From: Patescibacteria group bacterium | GTDB taxonomy: Bacteria; Patescibacteriota; Microgenomatia; UBA1400; PJMF01 | NCBI GenBank assembly: GCA_016861085.1 | Contig: BOKR01000001.1 | Coordinates: forward strand, 515,271 to 579,270 | Length of the DNA: 64,000 bases | Reading direction: 5' to 3' | Part shown: piece after piece, positions 1 through 50,663 of the stretch | Numbering within the stretch: the first letter of the stretch is position 1 | Layout: the number at the start of each line of letters is the position of its first letter | Notes under the pieces: model-generated | Seen by the model: the letters and a program-made list of their open reading frames with translations, nothing else | Databases searched by the model: none | What the model was told of the DNA's origin: nothing | Program-made: the position numbers and the translations under genes

Positions 1-612
1 AGTTTCTATGCTACAAAAACCATGACTACCGGTGAAGGTGGTATGCTTACCACAAATAATAAAAAGATTGCTGATTTTGTTGCACGAAACAGGTTGCATG
101 GGATTTCCAGGGATGCATGGAAACGATACCGTAAAGATGGTAGTTGGAAATATGATGTGCTCTATGCTGGCTTCAAATACAATATGACTGATGTTCAGGC
201 CTCGCTCGGTATTCACCAGCTATCTCGTTTAGAAAAATTCATAGAACAAAGAACAAAAATAGTTGGTCTTTATAAAAAAGGATTTTCTAAGAATAAACAT
301 ATCCAGATGCTTTCTACTCCAAATACCGTTAGACATTCATATCACCTCTGTCCTATTTTAGTGACGGGAGTAAAAAGAGACGAGCTTATTAAAAAGTTGA
401 CAGAAATGGAAATTGGTACGAGTGTACATTTTATTCCAATTCACCAGTTTAGTTATTATAAAAAATTTTATCCCGTCAAGAAAAATGATTTGCAAGTAAC
501 TGATTCTGTTTTTAAGCACATTTTGTCTTTACCTTTATTTCCGACTCTTAAACAAGAAGAGATTAATAGGGTTATTAATGCTGTAAATGCCTTGACTTTA
601 GATAGTAAATAG
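1..612 (+). CDS. DegT/DnrJ/EryC1/StrS-family PLP-dependent sugar aminotransferase (PseC/LegC-like); 5' partial, begins before the window
   Basis: Frame continues from position 1 as ...SFYATKTMTTGEGGMLTT, the family's lysine-containing active-site motif. Stop at 612. Confidence 0.8.
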   Translation, partial: SFYATKTMTTGEGGMLTTNNKKIADFVARNRLHGISRDAWKRYRKDGSWKYDVLYAGFKYNMTDVQASLGIHQLSRLEKFIEQRTKIVGLYKKGFSKNKHIQMLSTPNTVRHSYHLCPILVTGVKRDELIKKLTEMEIGTSVHFIPIHQFSYYKKFYPVKKNDLQVTDSVFKHILSLPLFPTLKQEEINRVINAVNALTLDSK

Positions 613-624
613 AAAAGAGGTTCT

Positions 625-1767
625 ATGAAAACTAAACATAGTGTTCCTAATTTTAAGTTAGGAAAGAAAAATGTTGGTAAAAATAGTCCAGTCTTCATTA
701 TTGGAGAGATTGGTATTAATTATGATGGAGAAAGAAAGAAAGCTTTAAAACTTATCTCAGTTGCTGCAAAAGCAGGTGTTGATGCTGTCAAATTTCAAAT
801 ATTTAAGTCAAAACGTATGTACAGTGAAAATGCCGGAAGTTTAATAGTTGCCTCAGGTGATAAGGTTGATATTCATGATCTCATTAAAAAAATGGAGCTG
901 CCATATGAGTGGCTCAAAGAATTAAAGTCATATGCAGAAGATAGGGGTGTAGAGTTTTTTGCATCAGTGTGTGATGAAATAAGTGCTGATGCATTGTTTG
1001 AAACAAAGCCCTGTGCATTCAAAATTGCTTCTTATGAGATAACACATTTACCGTTACTGGAATACGTAACAAAAAAGAAGCTACCTATTGTTCTCTCATG
1101 TGGTGGTGCGACCATGCTTGAGGTTTCTGAAGCTATACAAACAATTAAGGAGGCAGGAGGAAAAGATATTGTTTTAATGCATTGTATTTCTCAATATGAT
1201 GTTCCTCTTACAAAACTGAATCTCAATGTTCTAAAGACTCTGCAGTTACAATTTCCAGATTTAGTCATTGGTTATTCTGATCATTCCGCTCACCCAACAC
1301 TTGCTCCTGTTACCGCAGTAGCACTTGGAGCAAAGGTAATTGAAAAGCACATCACACTGGACAAATCTAGTGAGGGACCTGATCACTCATTTGCTTTAGA
1401 GCCAGATGAACTTGCAGAAATGGTTCAAGCTATCAGAGAAGCAGAACAAAAATTGAAAGATGGAGAGACTGTTGCAGTTTCCCAGAAGACGTTGGGTAGC
1501 TCTGAGCGCATGACATTTAAAAACGAAGTATATGTGCGAAAGTTTGCTTATCGACTGTTATATGCAACACAGCCGATTAAAGTTGGTGACCTTATAACCA
1601 CCAACAATATAGCTGTTCTTCGCTCTGGTGAGAATTATAAAAAGTATTTGAAGATTGGCTTGCACCCTAGATACTACAAATTAATTGTTGAACCTGGTGT
1701 ATATAGAGCTCAACGAAATATTAAAGTTGGTCAAGCAATTTCATGGAATGATATACTGGCACGGTGA
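625..1767 (+). CDS. NeuB-family nonulosonic acid synthase (N-acetylneuraminate/pseudaminic/legionaminic acid synthase) with C-terminal SAF domain
   Basis: PVFIIGEIGINYDG...KAGVDAVKFQ motif at the N-terminus of the TIM barrel. SAF-like C-terminus (IAVLRSGENY...KVGQAISWNDI). RBS-like agagg upstream. Confidence 0.8.
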   Translation: MKTKHSVPNFKLGKKNVGKNSPVFIIGEIGINYDGERKKALKLISVAAKAGVDAVKFQIFKSKRMYSENAGSLIVASGDKVDIHDLIKKMELPYEWLKELKSYAEDRGVEFFASVCDEISADALFETKPCAFKIASYEITHLPLLEYVTKKKLPIVLSCGGATMLEVSEAIQTIKEAGGKDIVLMHCISQYDVPLTKLNLNVLKTLQLQFPDLVIGYSDHSAHPTLAPVTAVALGAKVIEKHITLDKSSEGPDHSFALEPDELAEMVQAIREAEQKLKDGETVAVSQKTLGSSERMTFKNEVYVRKFAYRLLYATQPIKVGDLITTNNIAVLRSGENYKKYLKIGLHPRYYKLIVEPGVYRAQRNIKVGQAISWNDILAR

Positions 1768-2441
1768 AAACAATTACTGTTTCAATAATTATCAGAACTC
1801 ACAATAATCGTGATACAGTACGAAAAGCTGTTGAAAGCGCTCTGAATCAAGTGGTTGAAAGTTTGAATGTTGAAGTTGTTTTGATCGATGATGCTTCAAG
1901 AGATGAGTCGTTTGAAGAAATTGCCGATTACCTTGATCAAGTTTCTTATATTAAGACAAATGGTTTGGGTGCAGTAGCAGCACTAAACCTCGGAATTGTG
2001 AGAGCTACTGGGCAGTATTTTACTATTTTAGATGCGGATGATTTTCTTCCCTCAAATGCGGTAAGAAGTTTAATAAATCCATTTTTGAAAGAAGAAAACA
2101 TTGCTGCAGTATATGGTGATTACTATGAAATTGCTGTTGGCTCAAAAAGTAAAAAGCTAAAAAAAACTTCCCAAAATATTTTTAATACTGTTGCTGGTGG
2201 AATTTTGTTCAAAAAAAAATTAGTTGCTAGTAGTGGCTTATATGATACTTCCCTTTTTTTTCCAGAATACGACCTCTTGATTAAGTTAGAGAGAAAATAT
2301 AAACTGGTTCATGTTAATAAGGTAGTTTACAACTATGTGAGAAGCGGACAAAGCCTTACAGCTTCTGCCCAAAAAGTGATAGAAGGTGTGAAACAACTAG
2401 AAAAAAAATATGGCAAAAAACTACCAATTAGAGAATATTAA
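1764..2441 (+). CDS. Short GT2-family glycosyltransferase
   Basis: VSIIIRTHN, IDDASRDES and DADDF (DxD) motifs of GT-A family 2. GTG start overlapping the upstream stop. Confidence 0.65.
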   Translation: MKTITVSIIIRTHNNRDTVRKAVESALNQVVESLNVEVVLIDDASRDESFEEIADYLDQVSYIKTNGLGAVAALNLGIVRATGQYFTILDADDFLPSNAVRSLINPFLKEENIAAVYGDYYEIAVGSKSKKLKKTSQNIFNTVAGGILFKKKLVASSGLYDTSLFFPEYDLLIKLERKYKLVHVNKVVYNYVRSGQSLTASAQKVIEGVKQLEKKYGKKLPIREY

Positions 2442-2889
2442 AATTGTCGAAATGTTAGAAAGTGACTTGGAGTTATTGCTTTCTTGGAGATCTCATCCTG
2501 ATGCATATATTTTTTTTAAAAGTCAGAAAGGACCACTTAGGTGGTCAGAACACTTCAATTTTTGGCATAATCGTAAGAACAGGGTTGATTTCATCATTTT
2601 TTTTAAGGAAAGTAAAAGATGGAGAAAAGTTGGTAGTATCAACCTCAGTAGATTAGAAACTGAATTACCAGAAATTGGTATTATAATTGGAGAAATGACT
2701 TTACATGGAAATGGGATAGGAACAAAAGCTCTTTCTTTAGGTCTTGAGTGGCTAAAAGATGCTGGCTATAAGAAAGCATTAGCTGTGATTAACACTAAAA
2801 ACGAAGCAAGTAAAAAAATATTTTCAAAAAATGGTTTTGAAAAGAAACACAAAATAGATGTTTGGGAAGAATATACAAAAAACTTATGA
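2410..2889 (+). CDS. GNAT N-acetyltransferase, PseH-like (acetylates the 4-amino sugar nucleotide in pseudaminic-acid-type pathways)
   Basis: GNAT core IGIIIGEMTLHGNGIGTKAL and an N-terminal ...DLELLLSWRS motif typical of PseH. Sits between the NeuB-like synthase and other sugar-tailoring genes. Confidence 0.6.
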   Translation: MAKNYQLENIKIVEMLESDLELLLSWRSHPDAYIFFKSQKGPLRWSEHFNFWHNRKNRVDFIIFFKESKRWRKVGSINLSRLETELPEIGIIIGEMTLHGNGIGTKALSLGLEWLKDAGYKKALAVINTKNEASKKIFSKNGFEKKHKIDVWEEYTKNL

Positions 2890-4193
2890 GTAGCATAAAA
2901 GATCTAATTGCAGAGTCTTATTTGTTGCGTCGAAGTTATGTTGCGGCAGACCTCGTTGAAGCAATTAATAACTTGGCAAAGCATACAAAAGTTGCATACA
3001 AAGACTACACATTCAAGTCTGGTTTAGAGCATAATGGTTGGGTTGTTCCAAGTGATTGGTCAGTTTCGGAAGCAAAAATTTATAAGGATAATACACTTAT
3101 CTATGATGGGATGTTACATCCACTTTCAGTGATTACTCAGTCAGCTTCTTTTACTGGCAAAATCACTCTGCAAGAACTCAAAAAGCATTTATATTTTGCT
3201 CCTCGAAAACCACATGCTATTCCTTTTCACTTTAGACTTTCGTATCGGCCCTGGCAAAAAGAGTGGGGATTTTGTTTGCCAAAAAATGTATTTGATTCTT
3301 TGGCTCCTGGTGAGTATGATGTGAAACTAAATACAACAGAGAAACCAGGAGAGATGGTTGTAAGAGAGTTTACGATACCTGGAAAGTCTAAAGAAACCAT
3401 TGTTTTTGCTGCACACATAGATCATCCAGGTATGTGCAATGATGATCTTGCTGGTTGTGCGGTCGGGGTTTCTTTGTTAAATGCCATCAAAAAACAATTT
3501 AAAAAAACTAAATATACCTACAAATTAATTTTGGTTCAGGAAATTGTTGGTTCAGTCTTTTACCTGAATGCACTCACGACAGAAGAGTTGAAAAACATTA
3601 AATATTCATTATTTTTAGAAATGCTTGGAAATGACAACACAATCAACTTGCAGAAGTCTTTTTTAGGGAACACTTACATAGATGCTGTCTGCACAACAGC
3701 CCTAAATAGCCTAAAAAACCTCTATAGAGTTTGTTCATTTAGAGAATCAGCCGGTAATGATGAAATAGTTTTTGAAGCTCCTGGCTATGAAATTCCAATG
3801 CCATCTATTTCTCGTTGGCCATATGATGAGTATCACACCAGCGATGATAACCTGGAAATTATTCATGAAGATAAACTGCAAGAATCTTTAGAATATTTGC
3901 TAAATATTGTATTTATTTTAGAGAACGATGTTTATGTAAAAAGGACATTTACGGGTATAGTCAGTTTAGCAAACCCAAAATATGATTTGTATATTGATCC
4001 AGGACAAATATTCACAGGTGGTTTGCATCAAAATAATAACGCCACTCAGTTTCAATATATGATGCCAAGACTTCTTGATGGCACATGCAAGATTTCCGAG
4101 CTAGCTCAAAAATTTAATTTAGATTTTAGTTGGTTGTTCAATTATTTGAACAAAATGAAAGAAAAAGGACTTGTACTATTTTTGGAGAAATAA
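2886..4193 (+). CDS. DUF4910/M28-like metallohydrolase-fold protein (aminopeptidase-like domain) in a sugar-tailoring context
   Basis: IVFAAHIDHPGMCNDDLAGCAVGVSLLNAI resembles the M28 Zn-binding region. Start chosen at the ATG overlapping the GNAT TGA stop (ATGA); the ORF track start is 2862. Confidence 0.5.
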   Translation: MSSIKDLIAESYLLRRSYVAADLVEAINNLAKHTKVAYKDYTFKSGLEHNGWVVPSDWSVSEAKIYKDNTLIYDGMLHPLSVITQSASFTGKITLQELKKHLYFAPRKPHAIPFHFRLSYRPWQKEWGFCLPKNVFDSLAPGEYDVKLNTTEKPGEMVVREFTIPGKSKETIVFAAHIDHPGMCNDDLAGCAVGVSLLNAIKKQFKKTKYTYKLILVQEIVGSVFYLNALTTEELKNIKYSLFLEMLGNDNTINLQKSFLGNTYIDAVCTTALNSLKNLYRVCSFRESAGNDEIVFEAPGYEIPMPSISRWPYDEYHTSDDNLEIIHEDKLQESLEYLLNIVFILENDVYVKRTFTGIVSLANPKYDLYIDPGQIFTGGLHQNNNATQFQYMMPRLLDGTCKISELAQKFNLDFSWLFNYLNKMKEKGLVLFLEK

Positions 4194-4197
4194 CAAG

Positions 4198-5214
4198 ATG
4201 AAATTAAAAGTTGGCAAAAAAGTTGATCCAAAAAAATTCAAGCTCGGGCAAATTGAAGATACCAAGAAACTTCATAAAAGAACTGCGAACTTAATAAAAA
4301 GTTATGCTTTAAAAGCAGATGTTATTTTGAATAGTTGTTATCTATGTGGAGAGAAGCTTCCTGACGGTTCATTTGTTACAATCTATAATTTTGATTATTC
4401 CTTCTGCTCCAGTTGTGGGCACTTATCTGGAAAAAAGAGATTAAGTGATCAAAACCTTCAAAAATACTATCAAGAGAATCTTGATTACTCAAAAACATAT
4501 ACTGATGCAACACAGATTCAATATAGACTGAAAAATATTGCACAACCTAAAGTCAAGTTTGTGATGGAACACATTAAGCAGCCAAAAGAAGGGGTTTGGC
4601 TAGATGTTGGTTGTGCCATAGGTGATGTAGTCAAAGTTGTAGAAGAATATGAAAATTGGTCAGCAATAGGATGTGACATCAGTAAACCCTCAATAGAAAT
4701 GGGCAGAAAGCTATTCAATATAGATTTACGACAGGAAAATATTAGCGATTTTCTAGGAAAGAACCCAAGATTACTTTTTGATGTAGTGTCATTTTTTGGT
4801 TATTTCGCTGTAACTTCAAGTCCGCTAAAAGACATGGAGCTTGCTGTCAAGCATTTAAAAAAGCATGGATATATTGTAGTTGGGGATTCAAATGCAGATT
4901 CATTTTCTACAATTATTCAGAAAAGCTACCCTGAATTTTCTACTCGCCACATACTACCACCAAACACCACTCATCAGTTTACAAAAAAATCGATTGAATA
5001 TATTTTTAAAAAATTTGGTATAACTCCAATAGCATACTGGAATTTTGGTTTAGATTTTTTTGAGCTATTGAAGTATTTATCTTTAATGAACAATTCGTTT
5101 CAGGATACACCACTTTGCAACTTTTTAATGGAGAACCTCAATGAATTCCAAAAAGTCATAGATAAAAAATGTATGGGCGACTATTTTATAGTAATAGGCC
5201 AAAAGACGAAGTAG
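4198..5214 (+). CDS. Class I SAM-dependent methyltransferase with N-terminal Cys4 zinc-ribbon (sugar C-methyltransferase-like architecture)
   Basis: CYLCGEK...CSSCGH zinc-binding pairs followed by a Rossmann SAM motif WLDVGCAIGD. ATG 4198 follows the upstream TAA. Confidence 0.6.
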   Translation: MKLKVGKKVDPKKFKLGQIEDTKKLHKRTANLIKSYALKADVILNSCYLCGEKLPDGSFVTIYNFDYSFCSSCGHLSGKKRLSDQNLQKYYQENLDYSKTYTDATQIQYRLKNIAQPKVKFVMEHIKQPKEGVWLDVGCAIGDVVKVVEEYENWSAIGCDISKPSIEMGRKLFNIDLRQENISDFLGKNPRLLFDVVSFFGYFAVTSSPLKDMELAVKHLKKHGYIVVGDSNADSFSTIIQKSYPEFSTRHILPPNTTHQFTKKSIEYIFKKFGITPIAYWNFGLDFFELLKYLSLMNNSFQDTPLCNFLMENLNEFQKVIDKKCMGDYFIVIGQKTK

Positions 5215-5227
5215 TTTGTACAAACTA
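5212..5227. terminator. Perfect 16-nt palindrome tagtttgtacaaacta spanning the stop codons of two convergent genes; possible bidirectional terminator or RNA hairpin
   Basis: Read directly: TAG of the + gene (5212-5214) and TAG of the - gene (5225-5227, reverse complement) are the two palindrome ends. Confidence 0.3.
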
Positions 5228-6478
5228 TTCTAGCACTACATAGTCTGAGATTGCAGCTTTTGCATCATAGGATTTTAAAAATAAAGCTACTATTCTCCTC
5301 GATACTGGAACTCCCAAAGTTTTTTCTAGGAATAGGATTGGGTAAACTAGCCAACTGAATTTTGGTTGATATGTTGTTTGTATTTTGCACTTACTAATAT
5401 CTTGTTTTAGATAACTTGCAATCCTATCAACAGATTTTCCATCGAGTCTATAGTAATTCTCTCGTAAATATTTTGACTGAAATTCTTTATATTTTTTTTC
5501 CCGTTTTTTATCTAAATTTTTTTCTATTATATCTTGCAATTCATCAAGTGTTCTAACGATCGGGTTTCCTGGACTACATTCTGTGAGGAAAGAGTCATAC
5601 TCTTTGTATGGAGCAAGTTGTATTGTTTTGATTCCTTTAATCCAGCATTCCGATGAAACTGTTGAACTCCAGTGTATAGCCATGTCAACACTTTTAATAC
5701 AATTATATAAAGAATATTGTTCCAAAAGAATAAAGTTACTAGCAGTAATTTTTTTGTAAGCAAGAGAGCTTTCTAATGGATGAGGTTTTACGATAATATT
5801 GTAATGGGGTAGTCGCTCACATAGTTTTTGAATTATTTCTATATATTTTTGTTTTGTTAGTGCAACACAAGTATTACTTTTCATCAGTTGCTTAATCGCC
5901 TTACTAAAATAGTTATCCGTTCTTAAATATTCTTCTGAGATTGTTACGAAAGAAGTAAAGAAAAATATGTTTTTTTTCTTCAAATTTGTGTTAACTTTTT
6001 TACTAAATTCTTTTCTCGAAAAAAATTGTCCACCTTTATTTCTAACTAAAAAGTCAATCTTGGGAGAACCAGTGATTTTAATTTTTTTTGGGCTAATATC
6101 AGTTTTAGCAAGTAGTTTTTCGTATCTTTTGCCTGGTATGAATATTTTTGTGAAGTATGTATTGTATGTAATATCTGGATTAAGTAGGAGATCTTCTATT
6201 GCTGGAATTACAGTAATTTCAGCAGGAACTACATATAGTAAAGCTCCAGAATCCAAAACATATTTTGCTAAATCTCTACAACCTTTTTCTAATGTTTGAG
6301 GAATAAATACTATGTCTGGTTTTATTTTATATAAGTAGTAGTACATTCTTTGGATTTCCCCTAGCCCACCAACTATGCTGACTTTTGCACTCAGAGTTTT
6401 TGCCAAAGTTTTTTGTAATAAGATTAAGTAATCTAGTTCTCTTGCTTTGTAGTTACTAAAAATTAATATTTTCTTCAT
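5225..6478 (-). CDS. GT-B-like transferase with KPHP motif: Capsule_synth (KpsC/KpsS)-like or TagB/TagF-like glycosyl/polyol-phosphate transferase
   Basis: ...NIIVKPHPLESS... (HP catalytic motif shared by TagF and KpsS/KpsC families). 417 aa with no TM segments. Confidence 0.45.
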   Translation of the reverse strand: MKKILIFSNYKARELDYLILLQKTLAKTLSAKVSIVGGLGEIQRMYYYLYKIKPDIVFIPQTLEKGCRDLAKYVLDSGALLYVVPAEITVIPAIEDLLLNPDITYNTYFTKIFIPGKRYEKLLAKTDISPKKIKITGSPKIDFLVRNKGGQFFSRKEFSKKVNTNLKKKNIFFFTSFVTISEEYLRTDNYFSKAIKQLMKSNTCVALTKQKYIEIIQKLCERLPHYNIIVKPHPLESSLAYKKITASNFILLEQYSLYNCIKSVDMAIHWSSTVSSECWIKGIKTIQLAPYKEYDSFLTECSPGNPIVRTLDELQDIIEKNLDKKREKKYKEFQSKYLRENYYRLDGKSVDRIASYLKQDISKCKIQTTYQPKFSWLVYPILFLEKTLGVPVSRRIVALFLKSYDAKAAISDYVVLE

Positions 6479-7185
6479 TTTTTCTTGCCTACTATATAAA
6501 GCGTGTACCCATAGTCAAAAGGAAGTTGATGTTCTAACCAAATAAGGGGATTTATAATTCTTCTAACTAATAGCCCGAATGGGCCGATTTTTCCTCTGCT
6601 ACCCAAAAATATTCTATCGAAAGCATCAAAAAAAATAGAAAAAATGTTAGAAAAAATTGGAGCTATGAATAATCCCTTTTCTACCTGTAGCTTGGGAATT
6701 AAGTCAAAATGTTTCATCTTTTTGATAATTCTTTTTCTGTTTATATATTGGTTTGGAGTAAGGAACTGATATATATTAAATATTTTGTATATCAAATGGT
6801 CTACTGCGCAACTAAAAATAATTATTCCATTTTTTTTCAATACTTTATTAACCTCTTTAAAAAAATGATTTAATTCTGAATTAGTCATGTATTGGATAAC
6901 GCCGATAAGAATAATAAGATCAATTGAATTCTTTTTTCCTAAATTTGGTACCATTTTTTTTTCAATCTTTTTAAAATTTATTTTTTTATTTTTATATTTC
7001 TTATTAGCTATAACCAAGCAGTCTTTACTTACTTCATACCCGGTATAGCGAATAATATTGTTGATGTTTAAGTAATCTATAAAAAAGCCATTTCCACATC
7101 CATAATCCACTACCGTAATTTTTTTATCTCCAAAATATTGGTTAATTAAATTGCTAATGTAGTTGTGTGTATTAGACATACTCAA
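6475..7185 (-). CDS. Class I SAM-dependent methyltransferase
   Basis: VVDYGCGNGFF motif I. Post-I acidic residue (GYEVS). Confidence 0.65.
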   Translation of the reverse strand: MSMSNTHNYISNLINQYFGDKKITVVDYGCGNGFFIDYLNINNIIRYTGYEVSKDCLVIANKKYKNKKINFKKIEKKMVPNLGKKNSIDLIILIGVIQYMTNSELNHFFKEVNKVLKKNGIIIFSCAVDHLIYKIFNIYQFLTPNQYINRKRIIKKMKHFDLIPKLQVEKGLFIAPIFSNIFSIFFDAFDRIFLGSRGKIGPFGLLVRRIINPLIWLEHQLPFDYGYTLYIVGKKK

Positions 7186-8053
7186 GTATTTTTTTTACTG
7201 CTTTACTTTTTTTTGATACAGCTACCAAATTTACTGTTTTAGGAAAATTGTAATTAGCATTAATCAAAGAAAGTTTTTCATTATTATCAAATTTAAATAC
7301 AAAAAAATTATTGTTTTTAAGTAGTTCTATTAATTCTTTGGACTTATATCCAAAGTCTGCTATTTTTTTGTTTAACTCAAATAGAATTATACTTATTTTA
7401 TTTTCACGAAAACAATTTTTGGCTCCTTGAAATACAAACAGTTCAGCCCCTTCAACGTCCACTTTAAGAAAATCAATATAATTAATGCCCTTTTCTTTTA
7501 CAAAAGTGTCTAGAGTTATGCAATTAACTATTTTTACATTTTTATCTTCGATATTTTCAGATGCTATGTGATTTATTTCAGACTCAGCCTCCAGAACAAA
7601 CTTGATTTTCCCATTTTTCTTTGATACCGCTTTTTGAATTATCTCAACTCTTTTGCTGAAACCGTTGATTGCTATGTTTTCCTTTAGTAGTGGAATTAAG
7701 CTATCGGTCGGTTCAAAAGCAAAAACTTTTACATTTTTTCCTTTTGAAGCAGCTAAAATTGATTCAGAGCCGATATTTGCGCCCACATCAATAACTAAAT
7801 CACCATTAGTAATCGTTTTGTTTATAAAGTTCATTTCTTCATATTCCGGGAAATTGGCGTATACAACAAAGCTCCCATAAGAACTGTTGGGATAACATAT
7901 AAGTTTAGCAGACTTAGTGATTTGTATTATTGCGGGGATTTTAAAAAAAACTTGATTCAGTTTCCACCAAATTATTTTTAAGAAAGTCTCTCTCTTTCGA
8001 TTTCTATTTAGTGGGTGGTTAAGAAGCTTCTTTAGTTGGTTTATCTTTTGCAT
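7172..8053 (-). CDS. FkbM-family methyltransferase
   Basis: LVIDVGANIGSESI...VFAFEP and a C-terminal FLKVDVEGAE motif characteristic of the FkbM family. Confidence 0.7.
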   Translation of the reverse strand: MQKINQLKKLLNHPLNRNRKRETFLKIIWWKLNQVFFKIPAIIQITKSAKLICYPNSSYGSFVVYANFPEYEEMNFINKTITNGDLVIDVGANIGSESILAASKGKNVKVFAFEPTDSLIPLLKENIAINGFSKRVEIIQKAVSKKNGKIKFVLEAESEINHIASENIEDKNVKIVNCITLDTFVKEKGINYIDFLKVDVEGAELFVFQGAKNCFRENKISIILFELNKKIADFGYKSKELIELLKNNNFFVFKFDNNEKLSLINANYNFPKTVNLVAVSKKSKAVKKILEYV

Positions 8054-9141
8054 GTGGAGTCAATGATCTTTTGTTCCGTAAGTAATGCGTCAATAAAAAA
8101 TTTTGTTGCCCAATTTAGATATGCCAGCCTACAATATCCTTGGTTTTTCAGAATATCACCATATATAGGATCACTACCTGCAATTGCTCCGTTTATAGCT
8201 TTGAATGGCGATGCTATTAGTTGCTTAGTTTTGAGATATTTATTCATTTTTGAAGCGGCATATAAGAATTTCTTGTTCTTGGTGATTTTATATAATTCAA
8301 GCCACATTAAAGAAATTTGAGCGTCCCCAGTTAAACAGGAATATTTGTCTTGTGATTGCCAATTTGAGTCAAAAGATCCAGGTAGAAAATTGTGTTTTAG
8401 ATAATAATTCAAGAGTGGGACAGAACCTCTTAAAGCAATTTTTAAAAGTTGAGAGTTACTTAGTATCAGTCCGGACCAAAGAAAACCTTCTACTGCATAA
8501 GAAATAGTATGTGTATACGGTAGCTGTATGTTTGGTTGTGGAAGTTCATTTTTTGCAAACCACCCGTTTGGTAGTTGTTGACTTTTGGCCCATTCTAAAT
8601 TTTTAATTGCAGCTGTTTTAAATTTGTTTTTTCCAGATATTTGATAGACTTTAAGAATTCCCCATGCTACGCGAGTATGATATGTATGTGTTGTATTTCC
8701 GTATGTATTTTTTACCCATGATCCATCTTTTTCTTGAATTGAGAGCAAATATTCAGCAGCTGCAATGGCTGATTTTAGGTATTTTTTGTTATTAGTGAGC
8801 TCATATATGGCAGATATTCCAATTAGATCTTGTCCCATATTAAATACTACTACTGCATCATCATTCTTTTGTTTTGGTGTATAGAGTTTGTATGCTCCGT
8901 TTGGAAGTTGCATTTTTAGTAAAAAATCTGCCATTTTGATGGCACGTGATCTATATTGTGGATCTTTAAAGTATTCGTATGCATCTAGAAATGTATTGAT
9001 AATGTATCCAGTTGTTTCTATATATGATGGTTGCCAACCATTAAGCAATGAAAACCATGCAGAAACACCGCCGTCACCAGTTTTGTCTTGTGCAAGCATC
9101 AACCATGCAAGCGCAGCCTTAATATTCTTTTTGTTATTCAT
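8041..9141 (-). CDS. Alpha/alpha-toroid repeat protein with prenyltransferase/terpene-cyclase-like QxxDG[GS]W repeats
   Basis: Four spaced repeats: LAQDKTGDGGV, KMQLPNGAY, SIQEKDGSW, SQQLPNGWF. Aromatic-rich. No TM segments. Confidence 0.4.
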   Translation of the reverse strand: MNNKKNIKAALAWLMLAQDKTGDGGVSAWFSLLNGWQPSYIETTGYIINTFLDAYEYFKDPQYRSRAIKMADFLLKMQLPNGAYKLYTPKQKNDDAVVVFNMGQDLIGISAIYELTNNKKYLKSAIAAAEYLLSIQEKDGSWVKNTYGNTTHTYHTRVAWGILKVYQISGKNKFKTAAIKNLEWAKSQQLPNGWFAKNELPQPNIQLPYTHTISYAVEGFLWSGLILSNSQLLKIALRGSVPLLNYYLKHNFLPGSFDSNWQSQDKYSCLTGDAQISLMWLELYKITKNKKFLYAASKMNKYLKTKQLIASPFKAINGAIAGSDPIYGDILKNQGYCRLAYLNWATKFFIDALLTEQKIIDSTCKR

Positions 9142-9145
9142 GCTT

Positions 9146-10378
9146 TTATTCTTTTACTCCAAGTTGATAGAGTTTGATGTTTGTTTTTTTAAAGTCTGAA
9201 TTCAAAAACAAGTTTCTTGTATCATAAACAAAAATGATGTTTTGGTAGCGAGAAAAATCAATTCTTTTATACAAGTCATGATCAGTCAAAACTATTAGTA
9301 TATTTGATAATTTCAAAATGCTTTCTAATTCAAGAAAATCTTTGTTTTTAACAAAAGGATCATTTATTTTCACAGAATAATTTTTTGATAGCAACTCGAA
9401 TATTTTTTTACTTGGAGTTTCTCTTGAATCGTCAATATTTTTCTTGTATGCATAGCCAAGTAACCCTATTTTAGGTTTTTTTACTTTATTTTTTAGAATG
9501 AGGGAATCAATTTTTGCTTGTATTATTTGAGACATTTCTTTGTTTATAAGTAAACTTTTTTCTATCAAGCCTTGATTCTTAGATTCAGGGTCTATAAAAA
9601 ACCAAGGATCGATTGGTATACAATGACCACCTACCCCTGGCCCTGGTTGATGAATTGCAACTCTGGGGTGTTTATTTGAAAGATTGATTGCCTCCCAAAC
9701 ATTAAAATCTAGTTTCTGGGCTATTTGTGAGAACTCGTTTGCTAGTGCGATATTGACTGCTCTATATGTGTTTTCCATTACTTTACAGGCTGCTGCAGTT
9801 GTTGGGTCTGTTGAAAACAAATTACCTTTTACAAACTTTGAGTACAGTAAAGTAGTAGCTTCATTACTCAAAGCATCTATGCCACCAACTATTCTATCGT
9901 TATGAATCATTTCATATAAAGTATTCCCGGGTATTGCTCGTTCTGGACAGTGTGCAAATAAAAATGGTTTGTTCCATGCCTTTATTTTTGGAATTAAAAT
10001 ATCGACACAGTCTCTGGGTGCAATTGTTGATTCAATAATGATTAAATCATTATCTTGAAAAACTTCTCCTATCGAATCTAATGCAGATAAAACAAATTTT
10101 AATTCAGCTGTACCTTTTTTAGCAGGAGTTGGTACTGCTACAATGTATACATCAGAATGTTTTAGGGTTGTTGTTGGAGTAAAGGTTTGTTTTTTTAAAA
10201 CGTTTTTAAATAATGTATCGAGCCCTTTTTCTTCGAAAAACAATTTTTTATTTTTGAGTTTCTCTATTTTCTCAGAATCAATGTCGTAACCAGTTACAGC
10301 AATTCCGGCATTTGCTAAGAGTAACGCAGTTGGCAGACCAATATAACCAAGCCCAAGCATTGTTACTGATTGTTTCAT
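9146..10378 (-). CDS. wecC: UDP-sugar 6-dehydrogenase family, probably UDP-N-acetyl-D-mannosamine dehydrogenase
   Basis: N-terminal Rossmann motif LGLGYIGLPTALLLA. Family-typical length (410 aa). Lies immediately downstream of a UDP-GlcNAc 2-epimerase. Confidence 0.7.
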   Translation of the reverse strand: MKQSVTMLGLGYIGLPTALLLANAGIAVTGYDIDSEKIEKLKNKKLFFEEKGLDTLFKNVLKKQTFTPTTTLKHSDVYIVAVPTPAKKGTAELKFVLSALDSIGEVFQDNDLIIIESTIAPRDCVDILIPKIKAWNKPFLFAHCPERAIPGNTLYEMIHNDRIVGGIDALSNEATTLLYSKFVKGNLFSTDPTTAAACKVMENTYRAVNIALANEFSQIAQKLDFNVWEAINLSNKHPRVAIHQPGPGVGGHCIPIDPWFFIDPESKNQGLIEKSLLINKEMSQIIQAKIDSLILKNKVKKPKIGLLGYAYKKNIDDSRETPSKKIFELLSKNYSVKINDPFVKNKDFLELESILKLSNILIVLTDHDLYKRIDFSRYQNIIFVYDTRNLFLNSDFKKTNIKLYQLGVKE

Positions 10379-16461: not shown

Positions 16462-17208
16462 TCAACTCTCTAAATTATATTTTAGAATTGCCCACACAGC
16501 CCTAAACGCATCTTTTAATCCGATTTTTTTACCATCCTCATATGTACGACCATGATAAGATATTCCAACTTCATAAATTCGAGCTTTTAATTTGGAGACT
16601 TTTGCTGTAACTTCTGGCTCAATACCAAAAGAGTTCTCTTTTATTTCAATCGACTGAATAATTTCTCTTCTAAAAACTTTGTAACAGGTTTCCATGTCAG
16701 TCATATTTAAGTTAGTAAACATATTTGAAAGAAGAGTAAGTAATGTATTTGCTGCATAATGCCAAAAATATACAACTCTATGAGCCTCTGATCCCATAAA
16801 TCGAGAACCATACACCACATCAGCTCTGCCTTCAAGAATTGGTTGAATAAGTTTTTTGTACTCCTTTGGGTCATACTCCAAATCTGCATCTTGAATGATT
16901 ACAATGTCACCGGTAGCTCTTGAAATGCCCTCACGAAGTGCTGATCCCTTACCACCGTTTTTATCTTTAAGGACTAAAACATCAATCGTACTTTTTATTT
17001 TTTCTAAAAGTTTTCGAGTGCTATCAGTGGATTTGTCATCAACCACAATCAATTCAAGCGATGAAATCCCACTATTTCTTACTTGCTTAATGATCTCAAC
17101 TATAGTTGCCTCTTCGTTGTACACCGGCATAACCACAGAGAGAAGTGGTTTTATTTTTTTTGTTTTAGTTTGCTTTTTTACGTTCATCAATCGCCTGCTT
17201 TCTAACAA
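16462..17208 (-). CDS. GT2 polyprenol-phosphate sugar synthase (DPM1/GtrB/CsbB-like)
   Basis: [32 protein letters not shown] are signature motifs of the Dpm1/GtrB clade. Start uncertain (17208 or 17187). Confidence 0.7.
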
Positions 17209-17500
17209 ATTCCTCTAATTTCTTTTGATTTTCTTTTTGCATGAAATAACTTAAAACCACAAGTACTGTGAGTACCATTAGCGCCAAAACTAATAATAAA
17301 TCAAAAACTCTTTGAAAACTAAGTCGCTGTGTAATTCCAGTTAGGAGATCTGGGAATAATGCTATTATGACAAATAAACCCCACATAGAATACCAAAAGG
17401 ACATTTCAATTAAAGACAGTTTTGATTTGTTTTTGTGAATGGACACCACATACATCATGAATAGAGCAAATAACGTCGCACCAATTTGAAATATACTCAT
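17165..17500 (-). CDS. DUF2304-like small membrane protein (2-3 TM segments) that typically accompanies GtrB-like GT2 enzymes
   Basis: Two hydrophobic helices followed by a charged C-terminus. ATGA overlap with the next GT2 gene. Confidence 0.5.
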
Positions 17501-18171
17501 AATGATATTCTCCAACTCAATATCTTTGTTATCATACGCACAGTATCCAAAATTGTCATCCCCCGCTCTAAATCATGATATATCGTTTTTATTGGGATCG
17601 TACTAAAGGGCATTTTATATTTTGCTGTTCTTGCAGCTATTTCCATTTCAACTGCATAATCTTGAGAATTCCATGCTAATTTTTTGTAGGCATGTTTTGA
17701 AATTGCTTTATAGCCACTTGGAATATCAGGAATATACTCACCAAATAAAAAGTAGATTACAGCAGAAGCAAGTCTATTCATCATAATTCTAACTAATGGC
17801 ATCTTGTCATCAAATGCTCTCACACCAAATACTACGTCTGATGATTCTAGTGCCTTATAAAAGAGCGAGAGTTCTTCTGGATCATGTTGATCATCACTAT
17901 CCATAAAAATAACTGCATCAGCTTTGAGTGTTTTAAAAGCATATTCGCAGCCAGTTTTAAGTGCAGCTCCTTTTCCAAGGTTAATAGAGTGGCATAACAC
18001 ATGCGGAGTTAGTTTTTGTGCTATTATTGCCATTTTGTCTTGAGACCCATCATCAACAACAATAATATTTTTGGATTGCTTTAGAACCTTTTTTAGAACG
18101 GTGGAAATATATTTTTCCTCATTTAATCCTGGAATAATAATCCAGACGTTATCTTTGAGCTGCTTACTCAT
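17497..18171 (-). CDS. GT2 polyprenol-phosphate sugar synthase (GtrB/ArnC-like), second copy
   Basis: IIIPGLNEEKYI, VVDDGSQD, FMDSDDQHDP motifs. 224 aa soluble-type. Confidence 0.7.
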   Translation of the reverse strand: MSKQLKDNVWIIIPGLNEEKYISTVLKKVLKQSKNIIVVDDGSQDKMAIIAQKLTPHVLCHSINLGKGAALKTGCEYAFKTLKADAVIFMDSDDQHDPEELSLFYKALESSDVVFGVRAFDDKMPLVRIMMNRLASAVIYFLFGEYIPDIPSGYKAISKHAYKKLAWNSQDYAVEMEIAARTAKYKMPFSTIPIKTIYHDLERGMTILDTVRMITKILSWRISL

Positions 18172-47663: not shown

Positions 47664-48752
47664 ATGCAAGAAAAAACTGAAGTCAAAGTACCAACAGCCT
47701 CATCAATCTTTTTTAAAGCTACGCTTCTTAGTTTGCTGTTCGTTGGTGTTATGCTTCTTGTCACAGCTCTTGGAGTTGCTCTGTTTGGATACTCTAAACT
47801 AAATCAATTTGCCAAACAGGCACACACCACTCCCACTGAGCTGAAAACAGTAGTAACAACTGCACTACAAACCACACCAAAGCAAACTGACGGTTATAAA
47901 ACTATCTTATTGCTTGGTGTTGACACAGTTACTAACAAACCAAATAGCCCTGAACTTACTGACACACTCCTGCTGCTATCGATTAATATGGACACAGGAA
48001 AAATTAGTACCCTTTCACTCCCTAGAGATCTTTGGGCACCAGCATATCAAACAAGAATTAACGCTTTATACGAATATGGAAAAGAAAAATACCCACAGCG
48101 TCCAGAACAATTTCCAGAAGAAGTTATTTCTGAACTAACCGGCATTACAATCGACCACACTATCACTTTGTCGCTTGGTACAGTCGCAGAAATCATTGAT
48201 ATTTTGGGTGGAATTGATGTGGACGTTGTTGAGGGCTTTGTTGATACTCAGTTTCCAAGAGAAGACATCGATATTCATACTGCAACTTCGCAAACACAGC
48301 TCTATGAAACAATATCTTTTGAAAAAGGACTACAGCATATGGATGGTGCTACCACCTTAAAATATATCAGAAGTAGAAAATCTACAGACCTCTCACAAGG
48401 CACTGATGTTGCCCGCTCACAACGTCAGCAACAAGTTATTTCAGCACTTATTTCTCGAATACAAAATTTCTCAATATTCAAAGACGTTGATGCGTTCGCC
48501 CAATTGTATGTGTTGTATTCTGACACTTTTGAAAAACAATTCACCAAGGTTGAAGCCATTGCAACACTTAATTATTTACTACCATATCTAGAAACAATTG
48601 ACTTGAATTCAAATTCATTAACAATTTATCCTGATGATAAGAATGGTGTCATCACTAACCCACCTGTTTCAAAATATAAGGGACAATGGGTGTATGAAAT
48701 ACGTGATTTAGCAAACTTCCAAACAGAAGTTAAAAAATCGTTAAGAGAATAG
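47664..48752 (+). CDS. LytR-CpsA-Psr (LCP) family glycopolymer-to-peptidoglycan phosphotransferase
   Basis: N-terminal TM anchor then ILLLGVDTV...TDTLLLLSIN...LSLPRD motifs characteristic of the LCP domain. Confidence 0.75.
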   Translation: MQEKTEVKVPTASSIFFKATLLSLLFVGVMLLVTALGVALFGYSKLNQFAKQAHTTPTELKTVVTTALQTTPKQTDGYKTILLLGVDTVTNKPNSPELTDTLLLLSINMDTGKISTLSLPRDLWAPAYQTRINALYEYGKEKYPQRPEQFPEEVISELTGITIDHTITLSLGTVAEIIDILGGIDVDVVEGFVDTQFPREDIDIHTATSQTQLYETISFEKGLQHMDGATTLKYIRSRKSTDLSQGTDVARSQRQQQVISALISRIQNFSIFKDVDAFAQLYVLYSDTFEKQFTKVEAIATLNYLLPYLETIDLNSNSLTIYPDDKNGVITNPPVSKYKGQWVYEIRDLANFQTEVKKSLRE

Positions 48753-48754
48753 AT

Positions 48755-48994
48755 ATGCTATTTATTTTTGAAAAACACAACAAGCCGATTCAAGATAAAT
48801 GGATTATTCGATTTCTTATTGTATTGACTCTCATTCTCTCAATAGCTGCTGGTTATTTTCATGCAGTACTTGTCGCGGAGCAAAAAAAATACGCAAAACT
48901 TGAAGATCTGTATGTAAGAGTTAGAACAGAGTTGGGAAGAGAAGAAACTCAGCGACTCATTGATTTCTCAAGAGAAAAAGAAATAAGTAATTGA
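48755..48994 (+). CDS. Small hypothetical membrane protein (one TM segment)
   Basis: 79 aa with hydrophobic helix IIRFLIVLTLILSIAAGYF and a charged C-terminus. Start overlaps the LCP stop region. Confidence 0.3.
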   Translation: MLFIFEKHNKPIQDKWIIRFLIVLTLILSIAAGYFHAVLVAEQKKYAKLEDLYVRVRTELGREETQRLIDFSREKEISN

Positions 48995-49029
48995 TTATTA
49001 CAGAATCTCAAGGTAAGCTAGGGGCAGAT

Positions 49030-50052
49030 ATGCAAGAAACTAGAACTTTACTCGTAACAGGCGGAGCCGGATTTATTGGTTCGAATTTTATCTTATATTG
49101 GCTGAAAAAATATCCAGAAAGTAAAATTATTAACCTTGATGCTTTGACCTATGCTGGTAATTTGGCAAACTTACGTTCGATCCAAAACTACCCAAACTAT
49201 ACTTTTGTTGAGGGCAGCATTACAAATAAAGAACTTGTGGATAATATTATGGACGATGTAGATGCTGTAGTTCACTTTGCTGCAGAGTCTCATGTTGACC
49301 GATCTATTCTTGATCCTGGTATATTTTTGCAAACCAACGTTATCGGTACACATATCCTCTTAGAGTCAGCGCTTACAAATAATGTGCAACACTTTCATCA
49401 TATTTCTACAGATGAAGTTTTTGGATCACTACCACTCAACACACCTGAAGCCCAATTTAGTGAGACTACCCCATACGACCCACGCAGTCCTTACTCTGCT
49501 AGTAAGGCATCTTCAGATCACTTAGTCAGGGCCTATGGAGAAACCTATGGACTCTCCTACACTATAACTAATTGTTCAAATAACTATGGAGAGTATCAAT
49601 TCCCAGAAAAATTGATTCCATTGGCCATCACAAATATCATGGATGGTCTCAAAGTTCCTGTGTATGGTGATGGAATGCAAGTGCGCGATTGGCTTTATGT
49701 GCAAGATCACTGCACAGCTATTGATTTAGTTTTACATGCAGATAAGTCAAGTAATACATACGTTGTCGGGGGTCTCACTGAAGACGTTCCTAATATAGAA
49801 ATAGTAAAAATGATTCTCAAGATTATGGGTAAAGGTGAAGATATGATTGAATTTGTGACAGATAGACCTGGTCACGACAAGAGATACAGTGTTAACTGGT
49901 CAAAAATAAAAACTGAGCTCGGGTGGAAACCGTCAGTATCTTTTGAAGAAGGTTTAGAAAAGACAATTCATTGGTATCAGGAAAACAGACATTGGTGGGA
50001 ACCGCTCAAAGCCGCCAATCAAGAATTTTTCAAGAAGAATTACTCAAAGTAA
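49030..50052 (+). CDS. rfbB: dTDP-glucose 4,6-dehydratase
   Basis: LLVTGGAGFIGSNF; YSASKASSDHLVRAY catalytic YxxxK; DRPGHDKRY. The ORF track start 48991 is probably an N-terminal over-extension. Confidence 0.85.
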   Translation: MQETRTLLVTGGAGFIGSNFILYWLKKYPESKIINLDALTYAGNLANLRSIQNYPNYTFVEGSITNKELVDNIMDDVDAVVHFAAESHVDRSILDPGIFLQTNVIGTHILLESALTNNVQHFHHISTDEVFGSLPLNTPEAQFSETTPYDPRSPYSASKASSDHLVRAYGETYGLSYTITNCSNNYGEYQFPEKLIPLAITNIMDGLKVPVYGDGMQVRDWLYVQDHCTAIDLVLHADKSSNTYVVGGLTEDVPNIEIVKMILKIMGKGEDMIEFVTDRPGHDKRYSVNWSKIKTELGWKPSVSFEEGLEKTIHWYQENRHWWEPLKAANQEFFKKNYSK

Positions 50053-50061
50053 AAGGTAATT

Positions 50062-50649: not shown

Positions 50650-50663
50650 AAGGGACAAAGTAC

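Follow-up and report, generated by a model that had tools for sequence, protein, structure and literature searches.

Our results indicate, with a probability of about 0.7, that an operon at the start of the window (the whole stretch analysed, 64,000 nucleotides) makes a CMP-activated 5,7-diamino nonulosonic acid of the SpsE (Bacillus legionaminic-acid) type, by a route in which a small GT2-family protein serves as the hydrolase. Positions 1-5214 are the downstream part (3' two-thirds) of this single plus-strand operon, which belongs to a Patescibacteria (CPR) genome and runs in the order Wzx flippase, CMP-transferase, DegT, NeuB, GT2, GNAT, DUF4910, methyltransferase. The CPR-like genome that had been proposed from the letters alone agrees with the origin of proteins GIK83866.1 and GIK83871.1, which come from a Patescibacteria group bacterium MAG with BroJett025_ locus tags. 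The genes in the window, including the three accessory genes beside the cassette (6475..9141), are the following:

1..612 (+), DegT-family PLP aminotransferase, 3' part (PF01041, E 2e-53)
625..1767 (+), NeuB-family nonulosonate synthase with C-terminal SAF domain (PF03102, 259.8 bits, E 3e-77; GenBank GIK83866.1)
1764..2441 (+), small soluble GT2, 225 aa (PF00535, 95 bits, E 5e-27)
2410..2889 (+), GNAT (Acetyltransf_3) N-acetyltransferase, MJ1062 type (PF13302, 60.9 bits, E 3e-16)
2886..4193 (+), DUF4910/DUF2172 M28-peptidase-like protein with C-terminal winged helix (PF16254, 183.6 bits; PF09940, 70.6 bits; PF04389, 45.3 bits)
4198..5214 (+), SAM-dependent methyltransferase (Methyltransf_23; PF13489, 45.4 bits)
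5225..6478 (-), GT-B glycosyltransferase, SpsB/TagB-like, BFO_1060 family, 417 aa, convergent with the operon
6475..7185 (-), class I methyltransferase
7172..8053 (-), FkbM methyltransferase
8041..9141 (-), alpha/alpha-toroid protein

The original prediction described contiguous DegT, NeuB and PseH-like GNAT genes. All three exist on the plus strand, but the GT2 gene lies between NeuB and GNAT; it had gone unmentioned, as had the DUF4910 and methyltransferase genes of the same 5214 nucleotides. The upstream genes were supplied by four contigs (L001-L004) that are 100% identical to the window across 10.7-11.8 kb. On these, a CTP_transf_3 gene (the CMP-transferase) lies directly 5' of DegT, upstream of position 1 as expected, and is preceded by the Wzx flippase. 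On the opposite strand upstream are a CBS-fused SDR, a GT-B enzyme and the WbuX/HisH/HisF acetamidino genes (WbuX, 342.8 bits; cut-off 203).

That the genes form a nonulosonic-acid biosynthesis module was borne out by this CMP-activating enzyme and by the synthase, which scored about 280 bits with NeuB-type models and 16 bits with DAHP-synthase models. The first refuting outcome named with the original prediction, a grouping with KDO-8-P/DAHP synthase-like paralogues, was thus not obtained. The synthase has a SAF domain (25.5 bits; cut-off 21) and falls under both NCBIfam equivalog cut-offs (NeuB_NnaB, 280.3 of 399.65 bits; PseI, 245.6 of 340.25). Its PDB matches were B. subtilis SpsE (1VLI, 370 bits), PseI (8H2C, 172 bits) and NmNeuB (138 bits), and a neighbour-joining tree, which gives the clade placement suggested with the original prediction, groups it with Bacillus SpsE. 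Judged by sequence, the synthase is a member of the SpsE clade and no PseI. In B. subtilis, SpsE is required for legionaminic acid (Dubois et al., 2020; PMC7439481); this requirement, the sole functional anchor of the proposed reading, comes from genetics and not from enzymology, which counts against that reading.

The window opens in frame at the PLP-lysine motif (SFYATK) of DegT and holds its C-terminal 203 aa (residues 180-382 of 382); L001 carries the complete gene (8840-9988). Among NCBIfam models, the complete protein scores best with PseC (408.5 bits; cut-off 423.5), the ArnB model gives 382 bits, and ArnB is the top PDB match. Identity is 44% to B. velezensis SpsC (339 bits) versus 32% to the canonical Mesorhizobium PseC (219 bits), and on this comparison we assign DegT as an SpsC orthologue. 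The CMP-transferase resembles PseF, not SpsF: PseF is its best NCBIfam model (149.7 bits, clearly below the cut-off), and it is 35% identical to Mesorhizobium PseF, a point against the SpsE-type explanation. As for the acetyltransferase, the GNAT fold was confirmed and its identity as a PseH orthologue was rejected, with 28 bits to the PseH model (cut-off 93) and 22 bits to PDB 4XPK versus 139 bits to PDB 3EO4 (M. jannaschii MJ1062). In some gene calls the GNAT may start at the ATG at 2452. In related cassettes its slot is filled by a formyltransferase or an LbH acyltransferase.

The GT2 has a GT-A fold with a DAD motif at residues 90-92. Its AF2 model (pLDDT 93) is nearest, among solved structures, to an uncharacterised Leptospira glycosyltransferase (6P61), and this ordinary fold with its DxD motif has no feature that separates a hydrolase from a transferase. 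In nine more contigs its gene invariably comes immediately 3' of NeuB, and others have it fused to NeuB or GNAT; of 12 GT2-seeded metagenome loci flanked by 3 kb or more on each side, 11 also carried NeuB. A PseG-family HMM matched in none of 51 GT2-type loci and in all 12 SpsG/PseG-type comparison loci. Because PseG/SpsG-like hydrolases are thus absent from the former and present in the latter, we infer that the GT2 is the missing NDP-sugar hydrolase; it appears to replace the usual enzyme as a functional analogue of PseG, SpsG or LegG. The alternative is that it is an ordinary glycosyltransferase. GT2-type synthases form one subclade of the tree, so the mutual exclusion may reflect a single evolutionary event and not many independent ones.

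The order CMP-transferase, DegT, NeuB, GT2, N-acyltransferase is kept in CPR, DPANN and other contigs, and with an optional SDR and an optional DUF4910-methyltransferase pair it recurs in L086, L087, L089, L090, L091, L092 and L093. Fusions of NeuB with GT2, GNAT or CTP_transf_3, and of GT2 with GNAT, were seen. The conserved core has six genes (SDR, DegT, acyltransferase, GT2, NeuB, CMP-transferase), which equals the six steps of the known pseudaminic (Pse) and legionaminic (Leg) routes. Linkage of the DUF4910 family to spsE/spsF-type sugar loci has been reported in ten bacterial clades (Das et al., 2014; PMC4000134). As here, the CA_C2195/DUF4910 loci of that study hold a DUF4910/DUF2172/wHTH protein among spsE-like, spsF-like, glycosyltransferase, N-acetyltransferase and methyltransferase genes. 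Unlike ours, the study included no CPR or DPANN, and it left the glycosyltransferase beside spsE without an assigned role and the sugar without an identity; the present analysis adds the gene order of the cassette, its fusions and the exclusion of PseG.

No UDP-GlcNAc 4,6-dehydratase of the PseB, PglF or LegB type occurs in the ~73 kb made up of the window and the 9.4 kb preceding it, and no protein of the present genome is among the best 120 relatives (at least 49% identity) of the cassette-type PseB-like enzyme. A PseB had been expected upstream. Instead, the only SDR there near the operon is the divergently transcribed CBS-fused protein, which scores 45 bits with the PseB model and carries S-T-C-S-V-Y-G in place of the dehydratase Asp-Glu acid/base pair. 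Its top PDB match is 6VO6, which we take to be a C4 dehydrogenase. The related cassettes L086, L087 and L089 have a PseB/FnlA-like gene inside the cassette (308-333 bits to the PseB model). In at least seven other cassettes (L090, L091, L093, L103, L105, L111 and L131) the CBS-SDR is the only SDR within the available sequence, which suggests that it can supply the 4-keto-forming step; the nonulosonate pathway may also be incomplete in the present genome.

We infer the catalytic roles, above all formation of the NDP-4-keto-HexNAc, hydrolysis by the GT2 and tailoring, as follows. An SDR would make the NDP-4-keto-HexNAc; here the CBS-SDR is the sole candidate close to the operon, and related cassettes would use the PseB/FnlA-like dehydratase instead or additionally. 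The SpsC-type DegT would aminate C4, the MJ1062-type GNAT would acetylate the new 4-amine, and the small GT2, with water as acceptor, would release the free hexose from the nucleotide. The SpsE-type NeuB would then condense PEP with the 2,4-diamino-hexose to the nine-carbon acid, and the CTP_transf_3 enzyme would make the CMP-sugar. The upstream WbuX/HisH/HisF may convert an N-acetyl to an acetimidoyl group, with further tailoring by DUF4910 and the methyltransferase. Finally, the sugar would pass to a surface glycan through SpsB/TagB-like GT-B enzymes, one in the window (417 aa) and one upstream (494 aa).

This locus shares with the B. subtilis legionaminic-acid pathway (SpsM, C, D, G, E, F; Dubois et al., 2020; PMC7439481) the synthase (48% identical to SpsE), the SpsC-type DegT, a UDP-sugar-style pathway, a GNAT rather than an LbH acetyltransferase, and an SpsB/TagB-like GT-B. 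It differs in its dedicated GT2, which has no Bacillus counterpart in that position, in its MJ1062-type GNAT and PseF-like CMP-transferase, and in having no SpsM/PseB-type dehydratase at the locus; the CBS-SDR, DUF4910, methyltransferase and WbuXYZ are extra. No homologues of SpsG (PseG-like hydrolase), SpsD or SpsF were found by tblastn.

The classical pseudaminic-acid pathway, with PseC/PseH/PseI in the window, PseB/PseF upstream and Pse5Ac7Ac or Pse5Ac7Am as product, is the reading first given to these genes, and we consider it unlikely. The reference was a Mesorhizobium operon (L100; PseB/C/H/G/I/F as in H. pylori and C. jejuni), with which the locus shares the six-step logic: SDR, aminotransferase, GNAT acetylation, nucleotide release, PEP condensation and CMP activation. 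The best NCBIfam models of DegT and the CMP-transferase are PseC and PseF, the acetyltransferase is a GNAT like PseH, and related cassettes hold a PseB/FnlA-like dehydratase. Pse also needs only a simple hydrolase, whereas such an enzyme would not do the 2-epimerisation required for legionaminic acid, a point that counts against the SpsE-type explanation. Yet every Pse equivalog cut-off tested was missed (PseC narrowly; PseI, PseH and PseF clearly), no PseB was found in the ~73 kb and no PseG at the locus, the synthase is far nearer SpsE, DegT is nearer SpsC, and the GNAT is no PseH. Moreover, a PseB-like sequence need not mean Pse, because B. subtilis SpsM, a PseB-like, retaining dehydratase, feeds Leg synthesis. 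Under the preferred SpsE-type reading, a legionaminic-type configuration has slightly less than even odds, another isomer or derivative is somewhat less probable, and a pseudaminic one is doubtful.

That the cassette is a non-functional remnant, left with no 4-keto substrate unless this is scavenged from a host, is rather improbable. Loss of a PseB-like dehydratase would fit the presence of its gene in three related cassettes and the lack of any protein of the present genome among the 120 relatives described above; in the window, the DUF4910 start codon (ATG, 2886) and the GNAT stop overlap as ATGA, and no gene lies between. Against this, each of the eight operon genes is an uninterrupted ORF that keeps its conserved motifs, the other cassettes with the CBS-SDR alone suggest that this enzyme can supply the step, and the search around the operon covered ~73 kb of a 1.17-Mb genome. 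More improbable still is a different ulosonic acid, either Neu5Ac/Kdn from WecB-supplied ManNAc or a 9-hydroxy 5,7-diamino sugar formed via a non-dehydrating C4 oxidase. A non-hydrolysing WecB (369 bits) and WecC lie 5-6 kb from the cassette, and the 6VO6 match, the missing dehydratase residues and the ArnB match of DegT could be read this way. But WecB comes with a WecC partner, as expected for UDP-ManNAcA synthesis, and it is no conserved neighbour of the cassette; the synthase is under the NeuB equivalog cut-off and is tied in operons of many phyla to an aminotransferase and an N-acyltransferase.

The 417-aa GT-B is a candidate CMP-nonulosonate transferase by profile comparison. It scored 133 bits with NF046086 (cut-off 200) and 116.6 bits with TIGR04396 (cut-off 125), and hhalign gave the SpsB family (probability 99.5%, E 6e-23), Epimerase_2 (E 8e-7) and PseG (63%). 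In T. forsythia, genetic evidence supports BFO_1060 orthologues as the Pse/Leg transferases (Tanf_01245/TFUB4_00887; Tomek et al., 2017; PMC5420450). The GT-B fits their profile end to end and has the HP motif, although it is below the family cut-off and the D/E-D/E-G motif was not found. Its gene follows the methyltransferase in L086, L087, L089 and L090, directly or with one gene between (L087).

The DUF4910 protein (158 bits to PDB 3K9T, CA_C2195) is a putative tailoring enzyme. The methyltransferase, which has an N-terminal four-Cys zinc ribbon (Cys-x2-Cys...Cys-x2-Cys), may methylate the sugar or its N-acyl/acetimidoyl group; it is always paired with DUF4910. The pair is kept in the same four cassettes, and homologues of the three accessory genes flank each of them.

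Six genes were found in the interval from position 1 to 5214 of the window by ORF listing and profile searches. All lie on the plus strand in the same direction and are tightly packed. The first codons of the window, in phase with the first gene, encode its PLP-lysine motif SFYATK.

Genes of the interval (window positions, strand, product and support)
1-612, plus, DegT aminotransferase, C-terminal 203 aa (PF01041, E 2e-53)
625-1767, plus, NeuB-family synthase with SAF domain (259.8 and 25.5 bits)
1764-2441, plus, GT2, 225 aa (PF00535, 95.2 bits)
2410-2889, plus, GNAT (Acetyltransf_3, 61 bits)
2886-4193, plus, DUF4910/DUF2172/M28-like protein (profile search)
4198-5214, plus, SAM methyltransferase with an N-terminal four-cysteine ribbon (profile search)

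The original prediction had described a contiguous DegT, NeuB and GNAT module performing the PseC, PseI and PseH steps in a CPR-like genome. The three genes exist, with profile matches on the plus strand, but they are not contiguous, as GT2 parts NeuB from GNAT; GT2 itself, the DUF4910 protein and the methyltransferase had been left out. The guess about the genome was right: the GenBank entries GIK83866.1 ("SpsE") and GIK83871.1 (BroJett025_04930) come from a Patescibacteria group bacterium MAG (longest contig, 1.17 Mb) obtained from an anammox-reactor enrichment.

Upstream DNA was obtained by exact-protein look-up from four contigs (L001-L004), which match the window at 100% identity for 10.7-11.8 kb and reach 9.4 kb beyond its position 1. 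A CMP-activating enzyme had been predicted upstream, and a CTP_transf_3 cytidylyltransferase gene does lie there, directly 5' of DegT and preceded by a Wzx flippase gene. The divergent upstream genes encode a 469-aa fusion of a CBS domain and an SDR (CBS-SDR), a 494-aa GT-B protein, HisH, HisF/WbuZ, and a WbuX N-acetyl-sugar amidotransferase (342.8 bits against a cut-off of 203).

Feature upstream of window position 1
L001 1009-3565, minus, WbuX, HisF/WbuZ and HisH paralogues, the acetamidino-forming trio

Enzymes of the WbuX/HisF/HisH type are known to convert N-acetyl groups to acetimidoyl groups. The trio also lay beside the cassette in L086, L087, L091 and L093, and L088 had two WbuX paralogues.

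The synthase is a member of the NeuB family, with scores above the Pfam gathering thresholds for the NeuB domain (PF03102, 259.8 vs 22.1 bits) and for SAF (25.5 vs 21 bits); models of DAHP synthase, with whose paralogues it might have clustered, reached only 16 bits. It missed the equivalog cut-offs for PseI (TIGR03586, 245.6 vs 340.25 bits) and NeuB_NnaB (TIGR03569, 280.3 vs 399.65 bits). Identity was 33-35% to three PseI references and 35-36% to two PGAP-named NeuB proteins, the latter serving with the TIGR03569 model as stand-ins for LegI. SpsE of B. subtilis was by a wide margin the closest of all PDB sequences (1VLI, 370 bits, E 1e-109), compared with 172 bits for C. jejuni PseI and 138 bits for N. 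meningitidis NeuB. A neighbour-joining tree grouped it with Bacillus SpsE (48% identity), apart from the three PseI and two NeuB references. We assign the synthase to the SpsE clade of the NeuB family on these PDB scores and this tree, which was made without bootstrap, there being no curated SpsE threshold. The full-length DegT of L001 missed the PseC model (TIGR03588, 408.5 vs 423.5 bits) and was closer to SpsC (44% identity, 339 bits) than to the canonical PseC of Mesorhizobium (32%, 219 bits); its best PDB match was ArnB.

Dubois et al. (PMC7439481) showed by genetics that B. subtilis needs spsM, C, D, G and E to make legionaminic acid, via UDP-linked intermediates, and that its PseB-like SpsM acts as a retaining dehydratase. 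Taken with these genetics, the SpsE-clade placement would point toward a Leg-type product and away from Pse, by analogy with one genetically characterised relative. The proposal that the clade predicts the sugar would then turn against the Pse assignment that it accompanied.

GNAT missed the PseH model (TIGR03585, 28 vs 93.1 bits) and matched M. jannaschii MJ1062 at 139 bits, against 22.5 bits for PseH 4XPK. The CMP-transferase, whose gene is outside the window, carries the CTP_transf_3 domain; its best model was PseF (TIGR03584, 149.7 vs 205.7 bits) and its best PDB match NeuA 9FTB (129 bits), and with 35% identity to Mesorhizobium PseF it is PseF-like. No homologues of SpsD, SpsF or SpsG were found by tblastn. 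What the window cassette has in common with Bacillus sps is limited to SpsC and SpsE, the remaining pathway not being sps-like; with the Pse pathway it has no more than the general logic in common. We conclude that this is a genuine nonulosonic acid (NulO) module, the outline of which had been correctly recognised and the details mis-assigned. It is a mosaic SpsE-type cassette and a member of a widespread, biochemically uncharacterised type.

The gene tables of nine further contigs with SpsE-clade synthases (44-64% identity) revealed two types. Seven of the nine (L086, L087, L089, L090, L091, L092, and L093) encoded, in this order, CTP_transf_3, DegT, NeuB, GT2, and an N-acyltransferase. In most of these, CBS-SDR and/or a PseB-like SDR came next, often with DUF4910 and methyltransferase genes and an SpsB-like GT-B; WbuXYZ and a second GT-B were also found near the cassettes. 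The slot after GT2 was occupied by a GNAT, a formyltransferase or an LbH acyltransferase, an interchange that supports a role of this slot in N-acylation. NeuB and GT2 were fused in L088, and other fusions joined NeuB to GNAT, NeuB to CTP_transf_3, and GT2 to GNAT. L094 (Lachnospiraceae) and the Bacillus loci had a PseG/SpsG-like gene and were without such a GT2.

Some of these contigs had peculiarities. In L089 (11120-13392, Chisholmbacteria-type), a formyltransferase is fused to the GT2 beside NeuB, with a PIG-L deacetylase after it, and the locus of the NeuB-GT2 fusion (L088, 415-5813) also holds HAD, ATP-grasp, GAPDH-like and transaldolase-like genes; both gene sets are further, uncharacterised tailoring variants. 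The DegT of L092 (7777-9004) was called as two pieces of 235 and 181 aa, which could reflect a frameshift or an assembly error, or mark a pseudogene.

In the known Pse, Leg and Sps routes, the di-N-acyl hexose has to be released from its nucleotide, a step carried out by PseG, LegG/NeuC or SpsG. A PseG-family HMM built here had no match in the window or in L001. It matched none of the 51 GT2-type loci (the window, L001, L007, L086-L093, and 40 GT2-seeded metagenome loci; some loci are duplicated or overlap, and some contigs are short). By contrast, the model matched 12 of 12 SpsG/PseG-type loci, including L013 from outside its training set; this comparison set came from a contig profile search, in which the matches listed were mostly distant PseI/NeuB-type loci and did not include the window's own genome.

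GT2 itself keeps company with the synthase. The family recognised by its FPEYDLL motif was NeuB-associated in 25 of 42 loci, and NeuB was present in 11 of the 12 family members flanked on each side by 3 kb or more; plasmid matches were generic or broken GT2 genes without NeuB context. The motif D90-A-D92-D93 was invariant in alignment A2. The AF2 model (pLDDT 93) has an ordinary GT-A fold for which Foldseek returned GT2 structures, the nearest being an uncharacterised Leptospira protein (6P61). The modelled fold places the protein among GT2 enzymes and is silent on whether its acceptor is water.

Two other proteins of the locus were considered for the hydrolysis or the 2-epimerisation. Epimerase_2 genes were near only a few GT2-type loci, and the sole one at this locus encodes a non-hydrolysing WecB (369 bits, against 79 for the NeuC model), which was ruled out as the 2-epimerase of the pathway, being paired with WecC and not conserved beside the cassette. 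The second candidate, as a hydrolysing 2-epimerase, was the 417-aa GT-B, which is convergent with the operon (5225-6478, minus strand). It had come into view by a faint Epimerase_2 match in the profile search. Profile-profile comparison gave E 8e-7 for Epimerase_2 and 63% for PseG, and a far stronger match to the SpsB/TagB-like family (99.5% probability, E 6e-23), on which the epimerase role was rejected. Members of the BFO_1060 family in T. forsythia are genetically supported Pse/Leg transferases (PMC5420450). The 417-aa GT-B missed the model of that family (NF046086, 133 vs 200 bits) while aligning with positions 2-362 of its 365. Its stronger SpsB/TagB-like and BFO_1060 matches lead us to read it as a transferase, and it probably acts as the BFO_1060 enzymes do, though outside the curated family.

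With the GT-B read as a transferase, and given the mutual exclusion of GT2 and PseG/SpsG, we infer that GT2 is the NDP-sugar hydrolase. The conserved core has six genes for six steps, and GT2 alone is left over. The odds lean slightly toward this assignment. GT2-type synthases form one subclade, so the exclusion may reflect a single replacement event. Leg synthesis also calls for inversion at C2, which a simple hydrolase would not bring about. We found no literature on a GT-A replacement of PseG.

For the first step, no PseB/PglF/LegB 4,6-dehydratase was found in the window and upstream DNA, where PseB had been expected; the best PseB-model score was the 45 bits of CBS-SDR. A tblastn search of the same DNA with three cassette PseB-like proteins gave only weak SDR cross-matches; the window otherwise encodes one GalE-like and one reductase-like SDR and a bona fide RmlB. 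No BroJett025-genome protein was among the best 120 relatives of the PseB-like enzyme of L086; this is suggestive only, and the pathway may be incomplete in this organism.

Most GT2-type cassettes have either CBS-SDR or the PseB-like dehydratase. Of the two, CBS-SDR alone was present in the window, L090, L091, L093, L103, L105, L111, and L131, the PseB-like enzyme only in about thirteen GT2-type loci, and both in L086 and L087. The CBS-SDR orthologues keep S-[T/S]-C-S-V-Y-G...Y-A-[R/K]-x-K, where RmlB has S-T-D-E (the canonical STDE motif is found in the window RmlB). Their cysteine presumably occupies the position of the base in GDP-fucose synthase-type epimerases. The best PDB match of CBS-SDR was 6VO6 (159 bits), which we take to be the C4 dehydrogenase Cj1427. 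Judged by these motifs and matches, CBS-SDR could act as an atypical dehydratase, as a C4 oxidase or as an epimerase. Its role and the GT2-for-PseG replacement are new, testable hypotheses, not demonstrated facts. In L086 (12329-13351) and L089 (13922-14953), a PseB/FnlA-like dehydratase gene lies between GNAT and DUF4910; at the corresponding window junction (2889/2886), GNAT and DUF4910 overlap (ATGA) with no trace of such a gene.

The cassette stands at the start of a roughly 60-kb glycan island with methyltransferases, an alpha/alpha-toroid protein, WecB/WecC, and GT4 and GT2 enzymes.

Further features of the glycan island (window positions)
8041-9141, minus, 366-aa alpha/alpha-toroid protein
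16462-17208 and 17497-18171, minus, two small GT2, polyprenyl-phosphate-sugar synthase-like (best models AglJ, ArnC, PpgS)
22233-47613, both strands, run of large membrane proteins (438-577 aa)
47664-48752, LytR-CpsA-Psr (LCP) ligase, then rmlB, rmlC and rmlD at 48991-51539

Ten of the large ORFs between 22 and 47.6 kb were tested; at least six matched GT-C-type families (PMT_2, YfhO, PTPS_related), and the rest had no family match. Candidates for extracytoplasmic glycosyltransferases are thus unusually dense in this run. The two small GT2 enzymes would supply them with lipid-linked donors. The LCP and rml genes are the far end of the island, with housekeeping genes after them, and their presence suggests that polymers are attached to peptidoglycan. 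The island fits complex glycopolymers displayed on the cell wall, in agreement with the surface-glycan context suggested earlier. The alpha/alpha-toroid protein, with weak matches to pectate-lyase, LanC, GH127 and squalene-cyclase, is kept beside the cassette in L086, L087, L089, and L090.

These results can be joined in one reading, to which we give, as a whole, a probability of roughly 0.35. The cassettes would form a monophyletic SpsE-type subclade with members in CPR bacteria, DPANN archaea and further lineages. A dedicated GT-A-fold GT2 of ~220 aa would have replaced the GT-B-fold hydrolase (PseG, SpsG, LegG) in this subclade. In many members, the window cassette among them, CBS-SDR, with Cys-Ser for the dehydratase Asp-Glu, would have replaced the PseB-type dehydratase. 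The product could be an undescribed NulO isomer or derivative (N-formyl or N-acetimidoyl, methylated). In this organism, a wall polymer would display it; the adjacent Wzx/ABC systems would export that polymer, and the LCP enzyme at 47.7 kb would ligate it.

Nonulosonic acids count among the major determinants of surface recognition in microbes. CPR/Patescibacteria lead a host-attached life, and a sialic-acid-like envelope sugar would therefore bear directly on attachment and on immune or phage evasion; no literature linking NulO to these bacteria was found in the library searched. If the proposed role of GT2 is true, a small family now annotated as "hypothetical" or "glycosyltransferase" would carry out nucleotide-sugar hydrolysis in a widespread type of pathway. 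Its annotation would be fixed in many metagenomic genomes, and a new catalyst, possibly with a new sugar, would be at hand for chemo-enzymatic routes to hard-to-synthesise compounds. If it is wrong, this is one more sps-like sugar locus, with SpsE already annotated in GenBank.

The DUF4910 protein belongs to its family by profile scores (PF16254, 183.6 bits; DUF2172, 70.6 bits), with a weak C-terminal HTH_45 (19 bits), and matched 3K9T (CA_C2195) at 158 bits. The linkage of DUF4910 to spsE/spsF-type loci was described in 2014 (Das et al., PMC4000134) and is not new. A plasmid of Halorussus aquaticus (L096, NZ_CP100401.1) has SDR, DegT, NeuB-family, DUF4910 and polysialyltransferase-family genes together, and its NeuB-family protein is 40% identical to that of the window; this cultured haloarchaeon could serve as a tractable organism for DUF4910-linked NulO loci.
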